Shown here one piece after another: positions 11,362-41,735 of a stretch of DNA of 64,000 nt. A model generated the notes under the pieces. The model did not search any database. It had not been told where the DNA came from and saw only the letters and a list, made by a program, of their open reading frames with translations. Both the position numbers and the translations under genes were made by a program. The DNA comes from Escherichia coli (GTDB taxonomy: Bacteria > Pseudomonadota > Gammaproteobacteria > Enterobacterales > Enterobacteriaceae): NCBI RefSeq assembly GCF_024298765.1, contig NZ_CP101210.1; one strand, given 5' to 3'. Position 1 is the stretch's first letter, and each line of letters begins with the position of its first letter.

Positions 11362-13488
11362 TCACACAGCTCTTTCAAGTGCTATCAAAATCGCACTCTC
11401 CGGATCCAGTACGGGGAGCTGAATCCCTCCCTGTGCCAGCCATTCACCACTGGCCTCAAGGCTCTGATTCATCCAGACAGGTAATTTGCGCATGGTATGA
11501 CCGCCTTCACCAACCACCTGGAGGTCCGGGTGATCAATAACCCGAAGCCGGTAACGCACTTCCGCCGCCAGACCGGGAAAACGAAGTATGCCTGGTAAGG
11601 TGTAATCCGGCATTGCAAGCTGGCTGATCATAAAAAGTGCCTGAGACTGATCAGGGCTGACGACTCCCTGAACCTGTATCGAAGGATCTGGCATATCCAC
11701 ACGCCAGAGAACTCCTGTATGAATCAGTTGTCGCCATTCTTTATAGAGCAAGGCATACCGGCGATAACCGTCAGATTCCTTCGCATCTGCGGCCACCGGA
11801 TCCAGCTCCAGCCCCATATGGCCGAACAATGCCGTCAGCCCACGAAAAGCGATGCTGTGCTGCCGGAAAGTTGCATGGCAGCGGCGATGGCCAATATGCG
11901 CCCCCATCACCTCAGGAGGGAAAAAGTAACTCATGCCACGTTGTATGGTGCAGCGCTCCAGGGCATCATTATTGTCAGATGCCCAGAACCGGTGTGTGCG
12001 TTTCAGGACTTCGAAGTCAATACGCCCCCCACCGGAAGCACAGGACTCAAACTCAACATGTGGAAAACGTTCACGGAGGAGATCAAGCAATCGATAGAAC
12101 TGACGGGTCTGTGCATCTGCTGCCGCACGGCCTTCATGCCCTGCCTGTACAAGCTCACGATTCATGTCCCATTTCACATAATCAACCGGATGTTCTCCCA
12201 GTAACCATAAGAAACGTTCATAAATGTAAGCAAAGGCCTCTGGAATATTCAGGTTAAGAACATACTGATATCTTCCGGTTGGCTGGGAATATCCAGGCAT
12301 TGACAATACCCAGTCAGGATGAAGACGAAACAGGTCAGAATCCGGGTTAATCATTTCCGGCTCAACCCATATGCCAAATTCCATACCGAGAGATTTCACA
12401 TGTTTAATAACCGGCATCAGCCCGTTCGGGTATTTCTGTTCATCGGTATACCAGTCGCCCAGAGCCGCGCGGTCATCGTTACGTCCTTTAAACCAGCCAT
12501 CATCAATAATGAAACGTTCAACGCCCAGTGCTGCTGCACGCTCAGCCATCTGCATGATGTAATCAGGATTGTGATTGAAATAAATACCTTCCCAGGTATT
12601 GAGATGTACAGGGCGGGGTTTTTGCTCAGGGAAACGGATAATTTCATCACGCAAAAAACGATGGTATTGCTGACTCATTCCATTCAGGCCATCCGCAGAG
12701 TGGCAGGCATATAGCCACGGGGTGTACAGGGTTTCATTCTTCCTGAGAGCCTTCTCACCCGGCATCCACAGAGCCTCAGCCTGAACGTAACGCCTGCCGT
12801 CAGTTTTTGCCTCACATCTCATGCGGTGATTTCCACTCCACCCCAGATGCACAGCCCACACCTCTCCCTGTTGTTCCGAGAAGCCTGGCGTGCCGACAAT
12901 CAGCGCCGGAAAATGCTCATGAGATGTCCGCCCTCTGCGATTTTCCAGAACAAAAGCATCATGAGTGAGACGTACCCTGTGCGGCTGAAATTCACGAGTC
13001 CAGCGTCCGTGAAAAGCCATGACTTCTTCCGCACGTTCCGCTAAAGGTAAAGTGATGGCGAAACGATTTATCTGCCAGTCCCCCTCTCTGAGGTTGGTCA
13101 GTGCATGACGAACTTTCAGAATTCCTGATGGCGTCATCACCAGCTCGCTGACCAGACGCAGGCCGGCTACCGAATCTTCACTGGTAAGTCTCAGAGTGTT
13201 TTCGGTATGTTCCACGTCAACTGTATAAAAAACAGGAGATGCATCCAGCCCATTCCTGTGTCCTTCCAGTCCCGGAGAGCTAAAAAGTCCCAGGGCATTT
13301 TCAGCCATCAGTGTTAGTGGCGTATCAATATCCAGACGACCATTCGCAACCGGTCTTTCCAGGCTGGCACAGTCATCCGGTGAGAAATGTTTCAGTGCAG
13401 AGCCCCACCAGATAATTTCTGCATGTGGACGGGTTTTAATAATTAAATCAGAGCGAGGACTGCTCAGTCTGCAGTACTTTGAAACCAT
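11362..13488 (-). CDS. rafA: Alpha-galactosidase (GH36)
   Basis: 708-aa ORF; GH36-like; position between rafR and rafB. Confidence 0.85.
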   Translation of the reverse strand: MVSKYCRLSSPRSDLIIKTRPHAEIIWWGSALKHFSPDDCASLERPVANGRLDIDTPLTLMAENALGLFSSPGLEGHRNGLDASPVFYTVDVEHTENTLRLTSEDSVAGLRLVSELVMTPSGILKVRHALTNLREGDWQINRFAITLPLAERAEEVMAFHGRWTREFQPHRVRLTHDAFVLENRRGRTSHEHFPALIVGTPGFSEQQGEVWAVHLGWSGNHRMRCEAKTDGRRYVQAEALWMPGEKALRKNETLYTPWLYACHSADGLNGMSQQYHRFLRDEIIRFPEQKPRPVHLNTWEGIYFNHNPDYIMQMAERAAALGVERFIIDDGWFKGRNDDRAALGDWYTDEQKYPNGLMPVIKHVKSLGMEFGIWVEPEMINPDSDLFRLHPDWVLSMPGYSQPTGRYQYVLNLNIPEAFAYIYERFLWLLGEHPVDYVKWDMNRELVQAGHEGRAAADAQTRQFYRLLDLLRERFPHVEFESCASGGGRIDFEVLKRTHRFWASDNNDALERCTIQRGMSYFFPPEVMGAHIGHRRCHATFRQHSIAFRGLTALFGHMGLELDPVAADAKESDGYRRYALLYKEWRQLIHTGVLWRVDMPDPSIQVQGVVSPDQSQALFMISQLAMPDYTLPGILRFPGLAAEVRYRLRVIDHPDLQVVGEGGHTMRKLPVWMNQSLEASGEWLAQGGIQLPVLDPESAILIALERAV

Positions 13489-13526
13489 AAGACATTCTCC
13501 TTTCTCAGGGATGCCTTACTGTTGAT

Positions 13527-13561
13527 CCGAAACGTTTCGGGTATCAACCAAAACGTTTCGG
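13527..13561 (-). promoter_or_regulatory. Two palindromic operator-like sites (CCGAAACGTTTCGG at 13527..13540 and CCAAAACGTTTCGG at 13548..13561) in the rafA promoter region; candidate RafR operators
   Basis: Perfect and near-perfect 14-bp palindromes 21 bp apart centre to centre, 40–73 bp upstream of the rafA start, adjacent to the LacI-family repressor gene. Confidence 0.55.
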
Positions 13562-13583
13562 ATATGTGAGCTGGATAAAAAAA

Positions 13584-14594
13584 TCAGGAGCAAGGAGGAT
13601 GAATCGTCTTTCCCGGATAAAATACCGGGTTCCAGACAACCTGTAGTGGTTTTGATGATGAATCAGTAATTATCTGATATATCATCTCGGAAATCTGGCG
13701 ACCAACGAGGCTTCGTGTTGACTGAATAACTGCAGCCACATCCAGCTCAATAATACTGTCCTGTGGCAAACCATCATATACAACCAGAGATACCGCATCT
13801 TTTCCTGAAAGACGACCGCTCAACTGCAGTGCCATGGCAGCACCATCTCCACTCAGGTCATTGTCAGTAATAATAGCTGTTGGTGGTATCGGTAGTGACA
13901 TTAACTCCATCACGGCCTGATATCCTGCTCGCCGTGTGGGAGAAACCAGCCGCAGCCATGTATCTTCCAGTTCATGCTCATTCAGTGCATCAAGCCATCC
14001 CTGACGTCTTGCAACAACATAGCTATGTGAAGTGTCTTCACTCAACAATGCAATACGTTTATGTCCCAAAGCAATCAGTTTCTGGGTTGCCTGTCCAGTC
14101 CCGGCATGATTATCAAAGTCAAACCACGCACAGGGCAGACCAGATGGTACCCGACCAAGAGCCAGAAATGGAATACCTGCTTTATGAAGGTGTGTGATAC
14201 GGGGATCGTCATCCAGAGTGTGTGCAATGATGAGAGCATCAACCCTGCGACTTTCAACAAGCCGCATATAGCTGTGGCAATCGGCATGCTCATCATCAGC
14301 TATCAGTAGTAAGTCAATATCATGGTGAGCAAGTTCCCGGCTGATGCAACTGACCATATCCATAAAAACACCACTGTTAAATGGCACATCACGTCCAGGA
14401 TAAACCAGACCGACAGCATCGGTTTTACCGGTTTTGAGTCTTCTTGCCTGAGTATTAGGACGGTAACCGCGTCGACGAGCTTCAGCTTCCACCCGTGCAC
14501 GGGTGGAAGCTGACACATCTGCATAGCCTCCAAGAGCCCGACTGACAGTGGTGACAGAAACTCCGAGTGCAGTGGCAATCGCCTTAAGTGACAT
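13584..14594 (-). CDS. rafR: LacI-family transcriptional repressor of the raf operon
   Basis: 336-aa ORF; N-terminal HTH (LKAIATALGVSVTTVSRAL); periplasmic-binding-protein-like sugar-binding core. Confidence 0.8.
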   Translation of the reverse strand: MSLKAIATALGVSVTTVSRALGGYADVSASTRARVEAEARRRGYRPNTQARRLKTGKTDAVGLVYPGRDVPFNSGVFMDMVSCISRELAHHDIDLLLIADDEHADCHSYMRLVESRRVDALIIAHTLDDDPRITHLHKAGIPFLALGRVPSGLPCAWFDFDNHAGTGQATQKLIALGHKRIALLSEDTSHSYVVARRQGWLDALNEHELEDTWLRLVSPTRRAGYQAVMELMSLPIPPTAIITDNDLSGDGAAMALQLSGRLSGKDAVSLVVYDGLPQDSIIELDVAAVIQSTRSLVGRQISEMIYQIITDSSSKPLQVVWNPVFYPGKTIHPPCS

Positions 14595-14617
14595 ATTATC
14601 TCCTGCTAATTATTATA

Positions 14618-14660
14618 GTAGACCGTCCCCCTAAATCTCCAGACAACCAATATCACTTAT
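14618..14660 (+). mobile_element. IS2 left-end remnant (~42 bp, about 38/42 identical to the IS2 left IR as recalled), 24 bp upstream of the rafR start
   Basis: TAGACCGTCCCCCTAAATCTCCAGACAACCAATATCACTTAT versus recalled TAGACTGGCCCCCTGAATCTCCAGACAACCAATATCACTTAA. Confidence 0.5.
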
Positions 14661-14676
14661 TGTAAGTTAACGGAAT

Positions 14677-14701
14677 CCCTCTGATCTGTAAGATCAGAGG
14701 G
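14677..14701. other. Perfect hairpin/palindrome CCCTCTGATC-TGTAA-GATCAGAGGG downstream of the integrase stop
   Basis: 10-bp perfect stem, 5-nt loop; no flanking U-tract on either strand. Confidence 0.5.
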
Positions 14702-14743
14702 AAAGGTTATTGATTGTGAGAATAATTTCAGGACAAAGTGTAA

Positions 14744-15928
14744 TTAACTCTCCTGGATGGAAAGTGAATCAATGTAGTCAGCGTACCATTGCATCATTTC
14801 ACGGCGACCATCGAGATACAGGGCATGATTATAGGTACCCCTGATGGAATTTTTATCCACATGAGCTAACTGCATTTCAATCCAGGCAGAATTAAAGCCC
14901 TGTTCGTGCAGAATGGTACTCATGGTGTGACGAAAACCATGACCGGTTGCCCTGCCATCGTAACCGATACGTTTGAGCACCATATTGATGCTGGCTTCGC
15001 TCATTGGCTTGTTGATATCACAACGTCCCGGGAAAACCAGCCGGTATTGTCCGGAGAAAGTTTTGAGCTGCAGCAGAATGTCAGTGGCCTGTCGTGACAG
15101 TGGTACGACATGTTTACGTCGCATTTTCATGCGGCTTTCAGGGATTGTCCACAGGGCATTATCAAAATCAATTTCTGACCATTCAGCGGACCGTAGTTCA
15201 ATCGTTCTGAGGCCTGTCAGAAGCAGCAGATTTGTCGCCATGCGGGTAACAGGACTGCCATGATATTCAGCGAGCTTCCGGAGAAAAACAGGGAGCTCAT
15301 CTGCTCTCAGGTGGGGGAAATGTGCAGCTTTTGGCGCCGCCAGCGTACTGGTCAGTTCAGATGCCGGATTGACAGTGGCTCGTCCGGTGGCGATGGCATA
15401 ACGAAAAATCTGATTACAGTATTGACGCACCTTACGAAGTTTTTCCAGCGAGCCACGTTTTTCTATGCGGCGCAGAATTTCCAGCATTTCCAGCGGGAGG
15501 ATATCAGTAACGCTTCGTTTGCCCAGATACGGGAAAATATCTTTATCCAGAGCCTCCAGTACGCTTCTGGCGTAACTTTCAGACCATGACAAAGATTTAT
15601 GCTGATGCCATTCCGTAGCAAGGGCATGGAACGTATTGGTGGCAGAGATTTTCTGAGTGAGTTTTTCCTTTCGCTTCTTTTCGCCCGGGTCGCCACCTTC
15701 GGAGATAATTTTTCGGGCATCGTCGCGTTTGATTCTGGCTTCAGCAAGGGAGACGTCGGGATAGACGCCGAGGGCCAGTTTTTTCTCTTTTCCTGCTATC
15801 CGGTATTTAAGCCGCCAGTAGCGGGCACCCGTGGTTTTTACCAGCAGATATAAACCACGTTCGTCAGAGAGTTTATAGTCTTTTTCTTTAGGTCTGGCTG
15901 TTTCGACCTGTCTGGCTGTAAGTGCCAT
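14744..15928 (-). CDS. int: Tyrosine recombinase, P4-type phage/island integrase
   Basis: N-terminal MALTARQVETARPKEKDYKLSD…GLYLLV typical of P4-family integrases; C-terminal catalytic region; immediately adjacent to tRNA-Phe; ORF track start at 15958 probably too early. Confidence 0.85.
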   Translation of the reverse strand: MALTARQVETARPKEKDYKLSDERGLYLLVKTTGARYWRLKYRIAGKEKKLALGVYPDVSLAEARIKRDDARKIISEGGDPGEKKRKEKLTQKISATNTFHALATEWHQHKSLSWSESYARSVLEALDKDIFPYLGKRSVTDILPLEMLEILRRIEKRGSLEKLRKVRQYCNQIFRYAIATGRATVNPASELTSTLAAPKAAHFPHLRADELPVFLRKLAEYHGSPVTRMATNLLLLTGLRTIELRSAEWSEIDFDNALWTIPESRMKMRRKHVVPLSRQATDILLQLKTFSGQYRLVFPGRCDINKPMSEASINMVLKRIGYDGRATGHGFRHTMSTILHEQGFNSAWIEMQLAHVDKNSIRGTYNHALYLDGRREMMQWYADYIDSLSIQES

Positions 15929-16000
15929 ATGGGGGCTCCTGAAACTGACTGAACACAATGAGCCCCCACCGGTGCCCCCAATGAACGCTTGATTGAGAGA

Positions 16001-16085
16001 GAGTTCAGTAGAGTTCGGTGGAGTTCAGGATGTTCAGATTGCTTGTAACGATGTGATTATACTTGAGTTTCGTGGAGTTCGGGAG
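16001..16085. repeat. Cluster of GAGTTC(A/G)G direct repeats between integrase and tRNA (candidate arm-type recombinase binding sites)
   Basis: Three tandem 10-bp-spaced copies at 16001, 16011, 16021, plus variants at ~16032, 16065, 16075. Confidence 0.35.
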
Positions 16086-16104
16086 ATGAATCTGGAAGTG
16101 AAAG

Positions 16105-16180
16105 TGGTGCCCGGACTCGGAATCGAACCAAGGACACGGGGATTTTCAATCCCCTGCTCTACCGACTGAGCTATCCGGGC
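16105..16180 (-). tRNA. pheV: tRNA-Phe (anticodon GAA)
   Basis: Reverse complement reads GCCCGGATAGCTCAGTCGGTAGAGCAGGGGATTGAAAATCCCCGTGTCCTTGGTTCGATTCCGAGTCCGGGCACCA, 76 nt with CCA end; pheV assignment from flanking yqgA/speC. Confidence 0.95.
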
Positions 16181-16285
16181 AACGGGGCGCATTAAACCTG
16201 ATTCGCCTCGTCTCGTCAATCAAATTTCTTCAATTTACTGCAGACTGCACAATCTATCATCACTTTGCCGCTATTGCACGCATTG

Positions 16286-16993
16286 TCAGGCAAACCAGGC
16301 GGTCCAGGCGGCGGAAAGCGGCATTGCCAGAAGGAGTGCTGGAAGCATGTTGACCACCGGGAACATTTTAATGCCACAGATGCGTAATCCGGTTGCCAGC
16401 AGCAATAAACCGCCTACGGCGCTGAAGTCTGCCATCATCGACGGTGTGGTCAGCGGTAATATCAGCGCGGCAGCCCACGCCAGCGTTAACTGGATGATCA
16501 GTAATGGGATACTAATTACCGACACCGCAATACCCAACGAGCAGGCGAAGATCATCGCCGTAAAGAAATCGAGAAATGACTTGGCGATTAAAATACTCGG
16601 ATCGCCGGTCATCCCTTCGTTCATCGCCCCGAAGATCCCGGTGCCGCTGGCGCAAAACAGGACAATAATCGCGACATAATTCTGAATAAAAGATTCATGC
16701 GCTGGCTTCTTACGTGAGTGGCGAAACAGATTTTGTGCTTTGGTGACCGCGGTATTGACGCCTTTTTCCAGCAGACAAATTTCGCCGATTAATGCACCGA
16801 GTAAGGTTGCTAAAACCATCGCCGGAAGGTTGGCGCATTTCACCACCAGTAAAATACCAATCCCCAGCGATGCCAGACCAAAAATAGATGTCATGGAGAC
16901 GCGGATACGTTCCGGTAAACGTTGGCTGAGCAGTGCGCCGAGAACGCCACCCAGTAAGACTGCACTAGCGTTGATAAAAGGGCCGATGACCAC
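16286..16993 (-). CDS. yqgA: Putative transporter YqgA (DUF554 family inner-membrane protein)
   Basis: 235-aa multi-TM ORF recognised as YqgA; synteny next to pheV and speC. Confidence 0.8.
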   Translation of the reverse strand: MVIGPFINASAVLLGGVLGALLSQRLPERIRVSMTSIFGLASLGIGILLVVKCANLPAMVLATLLGALIGEICLLEKGVNTAVTKAQNLFRHSRKKPAHESFIQNYVAIIVLFCASGTGIFGAMNEGMTGDPSILIAKSFLDFFTAMIFACSLGIAVSVISIPLLIIQLTLAWAAALILPLTTPSMMADFSAVGGLLLLATGLRICGIKMFPVVNMLPALLLAMPLSAAWTAWFA

Positions 16994-17384
16994 AAGAGTT
17001 CCTGTTAACTGTATTGTCTGATTTTCTTATTATGAACTTTTTGCCTTGTTGATGGCTTGTCTGGTCGCAAAGTCCTGGCTTGCACGCTTTAGCGAAAGGT
17101 GCCATGATTGCGCGAATTTTCTCCTCTCTGTACGGAGTTTGCCCGATGCACGCCACCTCCTTACATTCTCTCGCTTATCGCCGTTTCGCGCGAAACTCCT
17201 CCCCTTTTCTGCTCATGCGGTGAAGTTAACGCACGCTCACTGCAGGACAACAGTAAAATCAGAGCGTTTCTGCTTTTACTGATGTCTGGCGGTCGGAGCT
17301 GGTGACCAGTTTGACCCATATCTCATGGGGCAGGGTTTTCCACCTTGTCCGGTATTCTTACTTCCCCGAAACGGGTTTGCGCTT

Positions 17385-19520
17385 ATGAAATCAATGAATA
17401 TTGCCGCCAGTAGTGAACTGGTATCCCGACTTTCTACTCATCGCCGCGTGGTGGCGTTGGGAGATACTGATTTTACGGACGTCGCGGCAGTCGTCATTAC
17501 CGCTGCGGATAGCCGCAGTGGCATTCTTGCGTTGCTTAAGCGCACCGGTTTTCATCTACCGGTGTTTTTGTATTCCGAACATGTTGTTGAATTACCTGCG
17601 GGCGTTACGGCGGTAATCAACGGCAACGAGCAGCAGTGGCTGGAGCTGGAATCCGCAGCCTGTCAGTATGAAGAGAATTTGCTGCCACCGTTTTATGACA
17701 CGCTGACGCAGTACGTTGAGATGGGCAACAGCACTTTTGCTTGCCCTGGGCATCAACATGGTGCGTTCTTTAAAAAGCATCCTGCCGGACGCCATTTTTA
17801 CGATTTCTTTGGTGAGAACGTCTTTCGCGCCGATATGTGTAACGCTGACGTAAAATTGGGCGATCTGCTTATTCATGAAGGATCGGCGAAAGATGCGCAG
17901 AAATTCGCAGCCAAAGTCTTTCATGCCGATAAAACCTATTTTGTGCTGAACGGCACATCGGCAGCGAATAAAGTAGTGACGAATGCGCTGTTAACGCGTG
18001 GCGATCTGGTGCTCTTCGACCGTAACAACCATAAGTCGAATCATCACGGCGCGCTGATTCAGGCGGGGGCGACGCCGGTCTATCTGGAAGCTTCACGTAA
18101 CCCGTTTGGTTTCATTGGCGGTATTGATGCGCACTGTTTTAATGAAGAGTATCTGCGCCAGCAAATTCGCGACGTTGCGCCAGAAAAAGCGGAGTTGCCG
18201 CGCCCGTTTCGCCTGGCGATTATTCAGCTGGGAACCTATGACGGCACTGTCTATAACGCCCGTCAGGTGGTCGATACCGTTGGGCATCTGTGTGATTACA
18301 TTCTGTTTGATTCCGCGTGGGTCGGTTACGAACAGTTTATCCCGATGATGGCGGATAGCTCGCCGCTGCTGTTAGAACTTAACGAAAACGATCCGGGGAT
18401 CTTTGTGACTCAGTCGGTGCACAAACAGCAGGCGGGATTCTCACAGACGTCGCAGATCCATAAAAAAGATAACCATATTCGCGGACAGGCGCGTTTTTGC
18501 CCGCATAAGCGGTTGAATAATGCCTTTATGCTCCATGCTTCTACCAGCCCGTTCTATCCGCTGTTTGCTGCACTGGACGTTAACGCCAAAATTCATGAAG
18601 GGGAGAGTGGGCGTCGGCTGTGGGCGGAGTGCGTTGAGATAGGGATTGAAGCGCGCAAGGCGATTCTTGCGCGCTGTAAGCTGTTCCGCCCGTTTATCCC
18701 GCCCGTTGTTGATGGCAAATTGTGGCAGGATTATCCGACATCAGTGTTAGCCAGCGACCGCCGTTTTTTCAGTTTTGAGCCGGGGGCGAAGTGGCACGGC
18801 TTTGAAGGATATGCCGCGGATCAGTATTTTGTTGATCCGTGCAAGCTGTTACTCACTACACCTGGTATCAATGCCGAAACTGGCGAATATAGCGACTTTG
18901 GCGTTCCGGCGACGATTCTGGCGCACTATCTGCGTGAGAACGGCATTGTGCCGGAGAAGTGCGATCTCAATTCCATTCTGTTCTTATTAACGCCGGCGGA
19001 AAGCCACGAGAAGCTGGCGCAACTGGTGGCGATGCTGGCGCAGTTTGAACAGCATATTGAGGATGACTCACCGCTGGCTGAGGTGTTGCCGAGCGTTTAT
19101 AACAAATATCCGGTGCGCTATCGCGACTACACCCTGCGCCAGTTGTGTCAGGAGATGCACGATCTGTATGTCAGTTTCGACGTCAAAGACCTACAAAAAG
19201 CGATGTTCCGCCAGCAGAGTTTCCCGTCAGTGGTGATGAACCCCCAGGATGCACATAGTGCTTATATTCGCGGTGAAGTGGAGTTGGTGCGGATTCGTGA
19301 TGCCGAAGGGCGAATTGCGGCAGAAGGGGCGTTGCCTTATCCACCAGGCGTGCTTTGCGTGGTACCCGGAGAAGTCTGGGGTGGGGCGGTTCAGCGTTAT
19401 TTCCTTGCGCTGGAAGAAGGGGTGAATTTATTGCCGGGATTTTCGCCGGAGCTGCAAGGTGTCTATAGCGAAACCGATGCGGATGGCATGAAACGATTGT
19501 ACGGTTATGTGTTGAAGTAA
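17385..19520 (+). CDS. speC: Ornithine decarboxylase, constitutive
   Basis: Recognised SpeC sequence; start set at MKSMNIAASSELVSR (711 aa) rather than ORF-track 17325. Confidence 0.9.
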   Translation: MKSMNIAASSELVSRLSTHRRVVALGDTDFTDVAAVVITAADSRSGILALLKRTGFHLPVFLYSEHVVELPAGVTAVINGNEQQWLELESAACQYEENLLPPFYDTLTQYVEMGNSTFACPGHQHGAFFKKHPAGRHFYDFFGENVFRADMCNADVKLGDLLIHEGSAKDAQKFAAKVFHADKTYFVLNGTSAANKVVTNALLTRGDLVLFDRNNHKSNHHGALIQAGATPVYLEASRNPFGFIGGIDAHCFNEEYLRQQIRDVAPEKAELPRPFRLAIIQLGTYDGTVYNARQVVDTVGHLCDYILFDSAWVGYEQFIPMMADSSPLLLELNENDPGIFVTQSVHKQQAGFSQTSQIHKKDNHIRGQARFCPHKRLNNAFMLHASTSPFYPLFAALDVNAKIHEGESGRRLWAECVEIGIEARKAILARCKLFRPFIPPVVDGKLWQDYPTSVLASDRRFFSFEPGAKWHGFEGYAADQYFVDPCKLLLTTPGINAETGEYSDFGVPATILAHYLRENGIVPEKCDLNSILFLLTPAESHEKLAQLVAMLAQFEQHIEDDSPLAEVLPSVYNKYPVRYRDYTLRQLCQEMHDLYVSFDVKDLQKAMFRQQSFPSVVMNPQDAHSAYIRGEVELVRIRDAEGRIAAEGALPYPPGVLCVVPGEVWGGAVQRYFLALEEGVNLLPGFSPELQGVYSETDADGMKRLYGYVLK

Positions 19521-30869: not shown

Positions 30870-31136
30870 AAAAAAACTCCCTGTTGAAGAATGGAAATTG
30901 GTTGATATCTAATTGTGCTTATCAGTGCTTTGTGCGACAAATTGGTTAACCTGTCTGACAACTTGTCTATGTTTATCACAACTTGAAATAAAGTCAGAAA
31001 TTAAATATTAATTTTGTGCGCCAGGTTGTACATGTTTATAATCAATAAATGATGAGTAAATATTCACTAAATATATATAATAAATATCGTCGATATTTAT
31101 TCTGTAAGAAATATATTTTTGCCGAAGTTAATTAAC

Positions 31137-31150: not shown

Positions 31151-31189
31151 TAAAAGAAGTGATTAATGCGCCCGCAGGCGCATTAATGA

Positions 31190-39828: not shown

Positions 39829-39904
39829 AGCGGCAGAGGATAGAGCGAAGAAAAGATGACTGCAAGAGGTGGCTTCCTCCACGACGGGAGGAAGCCTGAG
39901 GAGA

Positions 39905-41680: not shown

Positions 41681-41713
41681 AGGTAAAAGAAAAAGGCCAG
41701 CGCGAGGCTGGCC
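41681..41713 (-). terminator. Rho-independent terminator downstream of metK
   Basis: GGCCAGC-gcgag-GCTGGCC stem followed on the minus strand by a T-rich run. Confidence 0.6.
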
Positions 41714-41735
41714 TTTGAAAGCAGGTGAAGAAAGA

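Follow-up and report, generated by a model that had tools for sequence, protein, structure and literature searches.

The perfect inverted repeat at 14676-14702 of the Escherichia coli sequence analysed here (64,000 nt of contig NZ_CP101210.1, hereafter the window) is likely to be the stem-loop of a Rho-independent terminator belonging to a P4-type integrase gene, its U-tract having decayed in the lineage that carries the raffinose (raf) genes. On sequence comparison it is an ordinary feature that belongs, by homology, to a family of hairpins in integrase 3' UTRs; this family is a small one, residing in tRNA-associated islands of E. coli, and its other members keep a canonical U-tract. By the same comparison the hairpin descends from an intrinsic terminator, and it is not to be filed as a canonical one because it fails on the U-tract. 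It probably serves as a weak terminator and 3'-end-protecting element, and not as a protein-binding site.

As DNA, the inverted repeat reads TCCCTCTGATCT-GTA-AGATCAGAGGGA, and the corresponding RNA of the integrase (minus) strand is UCCCUCUGAUCU-UAC-AGAUCAGAGGGA. The preliminary description had placed a 10-bp stem with a 5-nt loop, CCCTCTGATC-TGTAA-GATCAGAGGG, at 14677-14701, and we find this hairpin at exactly those positions; it is real but undersized, the true extent being 12 perfect pairs and a 3-nt loop, with T14676/A14702 added at the flank and T14687/A14691 on the inside. Six of the 12 pairs are G-C, and the stem-loop is as stable as expected of an intrinsic terminator. The 27-nt hairpin RNA has a folding energy of -19.3 kcal/mol, the same for both strands, and in a 71-nt context the fold has z-scores of -5.4 (plus strand) and -7.0 (minus strand), with none of 200 shuffles folding equally well. 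Judged against 100 dinucleotide-preserving shuffles of the window (loops of 3-8 nt), perfect hairpins are in excess, with two having arms of at least 12 bp (0.03 expected) and nine having arms of at least 10 bp (0.52 expected). The hairpin is not a product of chance, yet it is one among several such structures in ordinary bacterial DNA. Seven other perfect hairpins whose arms reach 10 bp or more lie at 6651-6674, 18650-18675, 31079-31101, 31162-31187, 39871-39896, 41692-41716 and 63873-63896, and that at 41692-41716 (AAAGGCCAGC...GCTGGCCTTT) has the appearance of a bidirectional terminator. Each arm of the hairpin under study also contains a GATC (Dam) site (14683-14686 and 14692-14695, 9 bp apart); these are probably incidental, because homologous hairpins have GGCC there.

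The hairpin lies on the sense side of an integrase gene (14744-15928, minus strand, 394 aa) whose product has the P4-type architecture of the tyrosine integrases (Pfam domains Arm-DNA-bind_3, Phage_int_M and Phage_integrase), in agreement with the RefSeq annotation of identical loci. The island is integrated at a tRNA-Phe gene (16105-16180, minus strand), which is pheV since yqgA and speC adjoin it. On the minus strand, the hairpin begins 42 nt past the integrase stop codon (14744-14746), downstream of the gene as in an intrinsic terminator, and the 41-nt 3'-UTR spacer between the two (14703-14743, minus strand) can be aligned with the 3' UTRs of sibling integrase genes. On the other side is a 41-bp remnant of the left terminal inverted repeat of IS2 (14619-14659, plus strand; TAGACCGT + CCCCCTAAATCTCCAGACAACCAATATCACTTA), so that the hairpin does lie between IS2 remnant and integrase stop as originally described. 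Next in the direction of the integrase gene comes rafR (13584-14594, minus strand), whose LacI-family product represses the raffinose operon, and which is followed by genes for an alpha-galactosidase, an MFS transporter and a GH32 invertase, the four genes making up the raffinose operon (rafR-rafA-rafB-rafD).

The IS2 remnant is the boundary mark between the integrase module and the raf module. It is 8 bp (TAGACTGG) shorter than the copy on a raf plasmid (locus L002, 6060-6110), owing to a deletion between TAGAC direct repeats, and it has one G-to-A change; in the plasmid, a degenerate TAGACCGT precedes the full IS2 inverted repeat. A promoter-like site on the minus strand at 14612-14641 (TGGAGA, an 18-nt spacer and TATAAT; 10 of 12 consensus matches) has its -35 element inside the remnant and its -10 element immediately beyond it, with 18 nt between the site and the rafR start region downstream. 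From this consensus match, the site may be an IS2-hybrid promoter of rafR, located downstream of the hairpin.

The terminator reading is carried mainly by homologous loci. The 3' UTRs of sibling integrase genes, identified by blastn matches that continue past the stop codon, align with that of the window and have a hairpin in the same place with different arms. These relatives are found in the pheV islands of strains 25-06685, OkiPb01677 and 116333 (loci L005, L006 and L090), in selC islands including those of O104:H4 and E. coli B (L007, L091 and L175; about 1000 genomes), and in strain GTEN_23 (L088 and L174). Their hairpins start 39-52 nt past the annotated integrase stop, within alignable flanks, and are followed on the integrase strand by the tails AUUUUGUUU, UUUUGUUAUU or GUUUUGUUAU. 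Our terminator scan, which requires at least five T in eight bases starting 0-2 bases past the stem, makes a call on the integrase strand for each of the three relatives scanned (tails AATTTTGTTT, TTTTGTTATT and GTTTTGTTAT), and we accordingly predict that the relatives' hairpins are terminators.

Four stem types can be distinguished, each given here in the direction of the integrase strand. The window type is CCCUCUGAUC-UUACA-GAUCAGAGGG, then AUUCCGUUAAC; the GTEN_23 type is CCCUCCGGCC-UGCAG-GGCCGGAGGG, then GUUUUGUUAUU; the selC type of O104:H4 and E. coli B is AUCCUCUGGCC-UACAA-GGCUGGAGGAU, then UUUUGUUAUU; and the pheV type of 25-06685 is UCCUCCGGCC-UCCA-GG(U)CCGGAGGA, then AUUUUGUUUUC. 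All share their position, alignable flanks, a stem of 10-12 bp with a loop of 3-5 nt, and a CCUC...GAGG base. The window type differs from its siblings in the upper stem, which is UGAUC/GAUCA in place of (C/U)GGCC/GGC(C/U)G, in the replacement of the U-tract, and in the IS2 end directly downstream.

When a covariance model was built from the relatives only, leaving the window out, its top match in the 64 kb was 14656-14724 on the minus strand, a full-length match of 30.7 bits with an E-value of roughly 0.007. In alignment A3, standard pairs make up 93% of the pair cells; sliding the 3' partners by 1-3 columns lowers this to 35-64%. In five of the 12 pairs both partners have changed (U-A to C-G and A-U to G-C are examples), and the observed covariation score was reached by none of 500 shuffles. 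We regard this covariation as supportive and inconclusive, since there are only four distinct stems, and these are of related sequence. The strand that is read is indicated by two G-U wobbles in the selC type, which can form on the integrase strand and not on its complement (-17.6 kcal/mol sense versus -12.6 antisense). The U-rich tails are likewise confined to that strand, and on these two grounds we consider that the structure is read as RNA from the integrase strand. A plus-strand terminator was rejected; the tail on that side is AAAGGUUA, there is no gene end at this place, and U-tracts are absent from the plus-strand side of the relatives' hairpins.

The tail is where the window departs from its family. 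The sequence directly 3' of the stem (UUCCGUUAACUUACA; 14661-14675, minus strand) is the counterpart of (A)UUUUGUUUU, UUUUGUUAUU or (G)UUUUGUUAU in the homologues, and in the window no canonical U-tract was found in the 7-9 nt or so that adjoin the stem. The immediate tails are ATTCCGTT on the minus strand (4 T in 8) and AAAGGTTA on the plus strand; as RNA of the integrase strand, the raf-lineage tail is AUUCCGUU, with 4 U in 8 as compared with 6 in 8 in the homologues. The main difference is a change of UU to CC (AUUUUGUU in the relatives, AUUCCGUU here), and a TransTermHP-style tail score gives -3.2 for the window versus -3.6 to -5.0 for the homologues. The initial observation that neither strand has an adjacent U-tract was therefore correct, and the terminator scan calls neither strand. 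It had been concluded from this that the hairpin is not a classical intrinsic terminator, which is true by definition and is misleading as a guide to what the hairpin is, namely a probable terminator derivative with a tail that went from the AUUUUGUU type to AUUCCGUU. Efficient canonical termination at the window hairpin is doubtful, because there are only 4 U in 8 and the scan makes no call.

Matches to IS2 reach 14659 or 14667, so that IS2-derived sequence starts 9-17 nt from the stem base; the proximal tail is therefore mutated integrase-UTR sequence, and the distal part, below about 14667, may be IS2-derived, having possibly been replaced by IS2. For the latter reason, the alignment to the U-tracts of the relatives is ambiguous past about 7 nt.

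Compared with known E. coli intrinsic terminators, then, the hairpin is alike in having a stable, G+C-containing stem-loop shortly past a stop codon on the sense strand, and in having direct homologues with an adjoining U-tract that are called by the scan; it differs in its tail (AUUCCGUU, 4 U in 8), which falls short of the consensus and for which low efficiency is expected. In our favoured account, the hairpin would act as RNA on the minus strand, from 42 nt past the stop codon, and the tail would have decayed to AUUCCGUU in the raf lineage, with an IS2 end 9-17 nt past the stem. The stable hairpin (-19 kcal/mol) would still form in the integrase transcript, where intrinsic termination would be at most partial and the resulting 3' end would be shielded from 3'-5' exonucleases. 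The rafR gene, seemingly with its own IS2-hybrid promoter, would be partly insulated from integrase read-through.

Among 5426 complete E. coli genomes, about 452 have the junction consisting of integrase stop, hairpin, IS2 remnant and rafR, which is located at pheV, at pheU or on a plasmid. In PLSDB it is present on 148 plasmids, whose hosts are E. coli, Klebsiella and Shigella, and the context was the same in every case. The raf lineage is nearly clonal (456 E. coli records, at least 95% identical), and conservation within it is therefore uninformative with respect to selection. The one conspicuous polymorphism is in the loop (14687-14691), which on the plus strand reads TGTAA in 306 of the 456 records and the inverted TTACA in the other 150; both alleles are present at pheV, and plasmid copies are almost all unflipped. 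The locus L003 (5001-5091) was noted for this polymorphism. Loop inversion is what intrastrand template switching classically leaves behind at perfect palindromes, and from these alleles the loop sequence is unconstrained.

The integrase gene of the window is a mosaic. It is essentially 100% identical to the pheV allele of strain 25-06685, a non-raf locus (L005), from the tRNA gene to about 14850, after which identity drops to 94%, 88%, 62% and 54% in successive 50-nt windows through the 3' UTR; the transition lies at about 14800-14850. Raf plasmids (L002) carry a 5'-truncated integrase gene (the 3' 759 nt only), the same hairpin, a complete IS2 inverted repeat and rafRABD. The simplest reading of these sequences is that the last 100 nt or so of the integrase gene and the hairpin are part of the raf module, and they suggest that this module entered resident pheV and pheU islands via homologous recombination within the integrase gene. 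More generally, recombination in the integrase gene is suggested as the way in which the raf module moved between plasmids and the pheV/pheU islands.

This population structure bears on the best-surviving alternative, namely that the hairpin is a functionless relic: a former terminator hairpin, now without U-tract, that is kept because the raf module is young and near-clonal, and that has no effect on the expression of integrase or rafR. The U-tract has indeed decayed, the 456 copies are all at least 95% identical, which leaves no time for purifying selection to show, and on the plasmids the integrase gene is truncated and presumably unexpressed, yet the hairpin is unchanged. Nevertheless, we think it unlikely that the hairpin is without effect. 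A perfect stem of 12 bp and -19 kcal/mol forms in any transcript that crosses it, and stable hairpins generally impede 3' exonucleases; moreover, the stem stayed perfect while its flanks fell to 54-62% identity relative to the nearest relative.

A different function has a smaller chance of being the whole explanation. Here the hairpin would be purely an RNA-stabilising 3' stem-loop, with ends made elsewhere (e.g., by Rho) and trimmed back to it, and it would have no terminator activity of its own; we consider this rather improbable. It agrees with a stable hairpin that has no U-run, and with an untranslated stretch past the stop codon where Rho could act, although the 150 nt from the integrase stop to the rafR start leave little room for Rho loading. 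The homologues carry U-tracts, and therefore the ancestral role was intrinsic termination; protection of the 3' end is in any case compatible with descent from a terminator, and excludes nothing. Known 3' stabilising stem-loops of the terminator or REP type, which block PNPase and RNase II, are likewise strong, and the window hairpin resembles them in its likely location at an mRNA 3' end and in that a U-run is not needed; REP is a repeated element, and the window hairpin is not. By this analogy, 3' stabilisation is the probable residual activity of the decayed terminator. Of the two functions first proposed for the palindrome, RNA stabilisation or protein binding, a role at the RNA level is thus plausible; binding is unsupported, since the arms vary while pairing is kept and the RafR operators are unlike the hairpin.

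We give only a slight chance to the idea that the U-less hairpin is selected in its own right, either as a processing or stability element that permits read-through and couples integrase with rafR, or as a cruciform or template-switch hotspot. In the latter form, which shares the same slight chance, the hotspot would define the junction for the exchange of cargo modules that follow P4-type integrase genes. Activity of the palindrome as DNA is indeed shown by how often its loop is inverted.

Still less probable is that the palindrome works as duplex DNA, as the binding site of a dimeric protein (RafR, the integrase or an excisionase, for instance, or some other regulator). The dyad symmetry is perfect, and each arm has a GATC Dam site (at 14683 and 14692), features that could suit such a protein. 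However, arm sequence varies among homologous loci with pairing kept, the wobble pairs point to one strand read as RNA, inversion of the loop entails no loss (150 of 456 records), and the site is single-copy. The integrase specifically is excluded by L005, where the protein is 99% identical to that of the window and the hairpin arms differ. The RafR operators O1 and O2 are palindromic and belong to the same locus, like the hairpin, but they are located in the rafR-rafA interval (13525-13563) and have the core CCGAAACGTTTCGG; a RafR operator (LacI-family, central CG dyad) was rejected as a candidate, the hairpin having nothing in common with CCGAAACGTTTCGG.

The least probable reading, and in our view a nearly negligible one, is that of mobile-element DNA (part of IS2, another IS or a MITE, a REP-like repeat, or a recombination site at the raf junction), for even though the hairpin abuts an IS2 end remnant and its loop inversion shows that the palindrome is involved in template switching of DNA, similarity to IS2 ends at 14659-14667 without reaching the hairpin, homologous hairpins follow integrase genes with no IS2 nearby, the palindrome has no Rfam family or phage match, and it is found once per raf locus, neither the window nor 94 other loci having a further copy. 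An origin inside IS2 was rejected by comparison with intact IS2.

The searches behind these statements were as follows. The exact palindrome occurs once in the 64-kb window, and a covariance-model search of the window and the 94 other loci gave no second copy. Recurrence elsewhere, proposed in the preliminary description as a check, was thus not observed: the palindrome is single-copy per raf locus in the window, in the genomes and in the 94 loci. An Rfam 15 scan of 13000-17000 had only tRNA-Phe above threshold, and nothing overlapped 14676-14702 even at E-values up to 10. Sub-threshold matches to mir-722 on both strands at 13523-13565 are spurious and correspond to the palindromes of the RafR operators (ATCCGAAACGTTTCGG and CCAAAACGTTTCGGAT), which lie at these window positions between rafR and rafA. 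A phage database contained no match to the hairpin, and the hairpin family was absent from 80 loci of integrase relatives in IMG/VR, some of which have unrelated canonical terminators or a convergent gene in its place. Among 80 loci from a genome collection covering many genera, there was no additional family member save L084, a contig labelled as a Collinsella MAG, on which an integrase gene of the E. coli selC type is followed by the identical terminator hairpin; this contig is probably a binning contaminant. Additional E. coli matches (L174-L176) have known stem types again, or have lost the hairpin through an IS insertion. Literature searches on raffinose with pheV, and on rafR with integrase, returned nothing relevant to the hairpin.

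The significance of the hairpin is mainly one of annotation. The integrase module of pheV, pheU and selC islands would end in its own terminator hairpin, and the raf module, on plasmids and chromosomes alike, would be bounded by an integrase gene's 3' end together with the hairpin. In genome scans, a hairpin at a gene end that has no U-run may be a decayed terminator, a point that comparison with sibling loci quickly resolves. If the hairpin is leaky, co-transcription of the integrase gene and rafR is possible, which would be a minor regulatory detail.

The terminator reading is also supported by wider relatives. Among 80 integrase homologues from other genera, most of those from enterobacteria are followed, at up to about 80 nt past the stop codon, by a strong hairpin that is not homologous to the window's, and a T-run often comes next. 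A CTCCTCC-loop-GGAGGAG hairpin lies 25-60 nt past the integrase stop in Klebsiella, Kluyvera, Enterobacter, Citrobacter and Lelliottia (L020, L031, L033, L040, L041, L039, L066 and L110); its run of 7-8 T is displaced 9-13 nt from the stem, which is non-canonical, and the covariance model finds no homology to it. Strain PapRG-04-4 (L089) has a different integrase 3' hairpin (AACCATCC...GGATGGTT) with a T-run, and O157 strain 20R2R (L092) shares this hairpin and has ISEc31 sequence directly past the stem, a second case of an insertion sequence landing at the tail of an integrase terminator.

Finally, the rafR coding sequence itself contains a perfect 32-bp palindrome with no spacer (TCAGCTTCCACCCGTG/CACGGGTGGAAGCTGA; 14482-14513). 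It encodes SASTRARVEAE near the DNA-binding domain, is also present in all four of the other raf loci checked (L001-L004), and is far less likely to arise by chance than the hairpin at 14676-14702.
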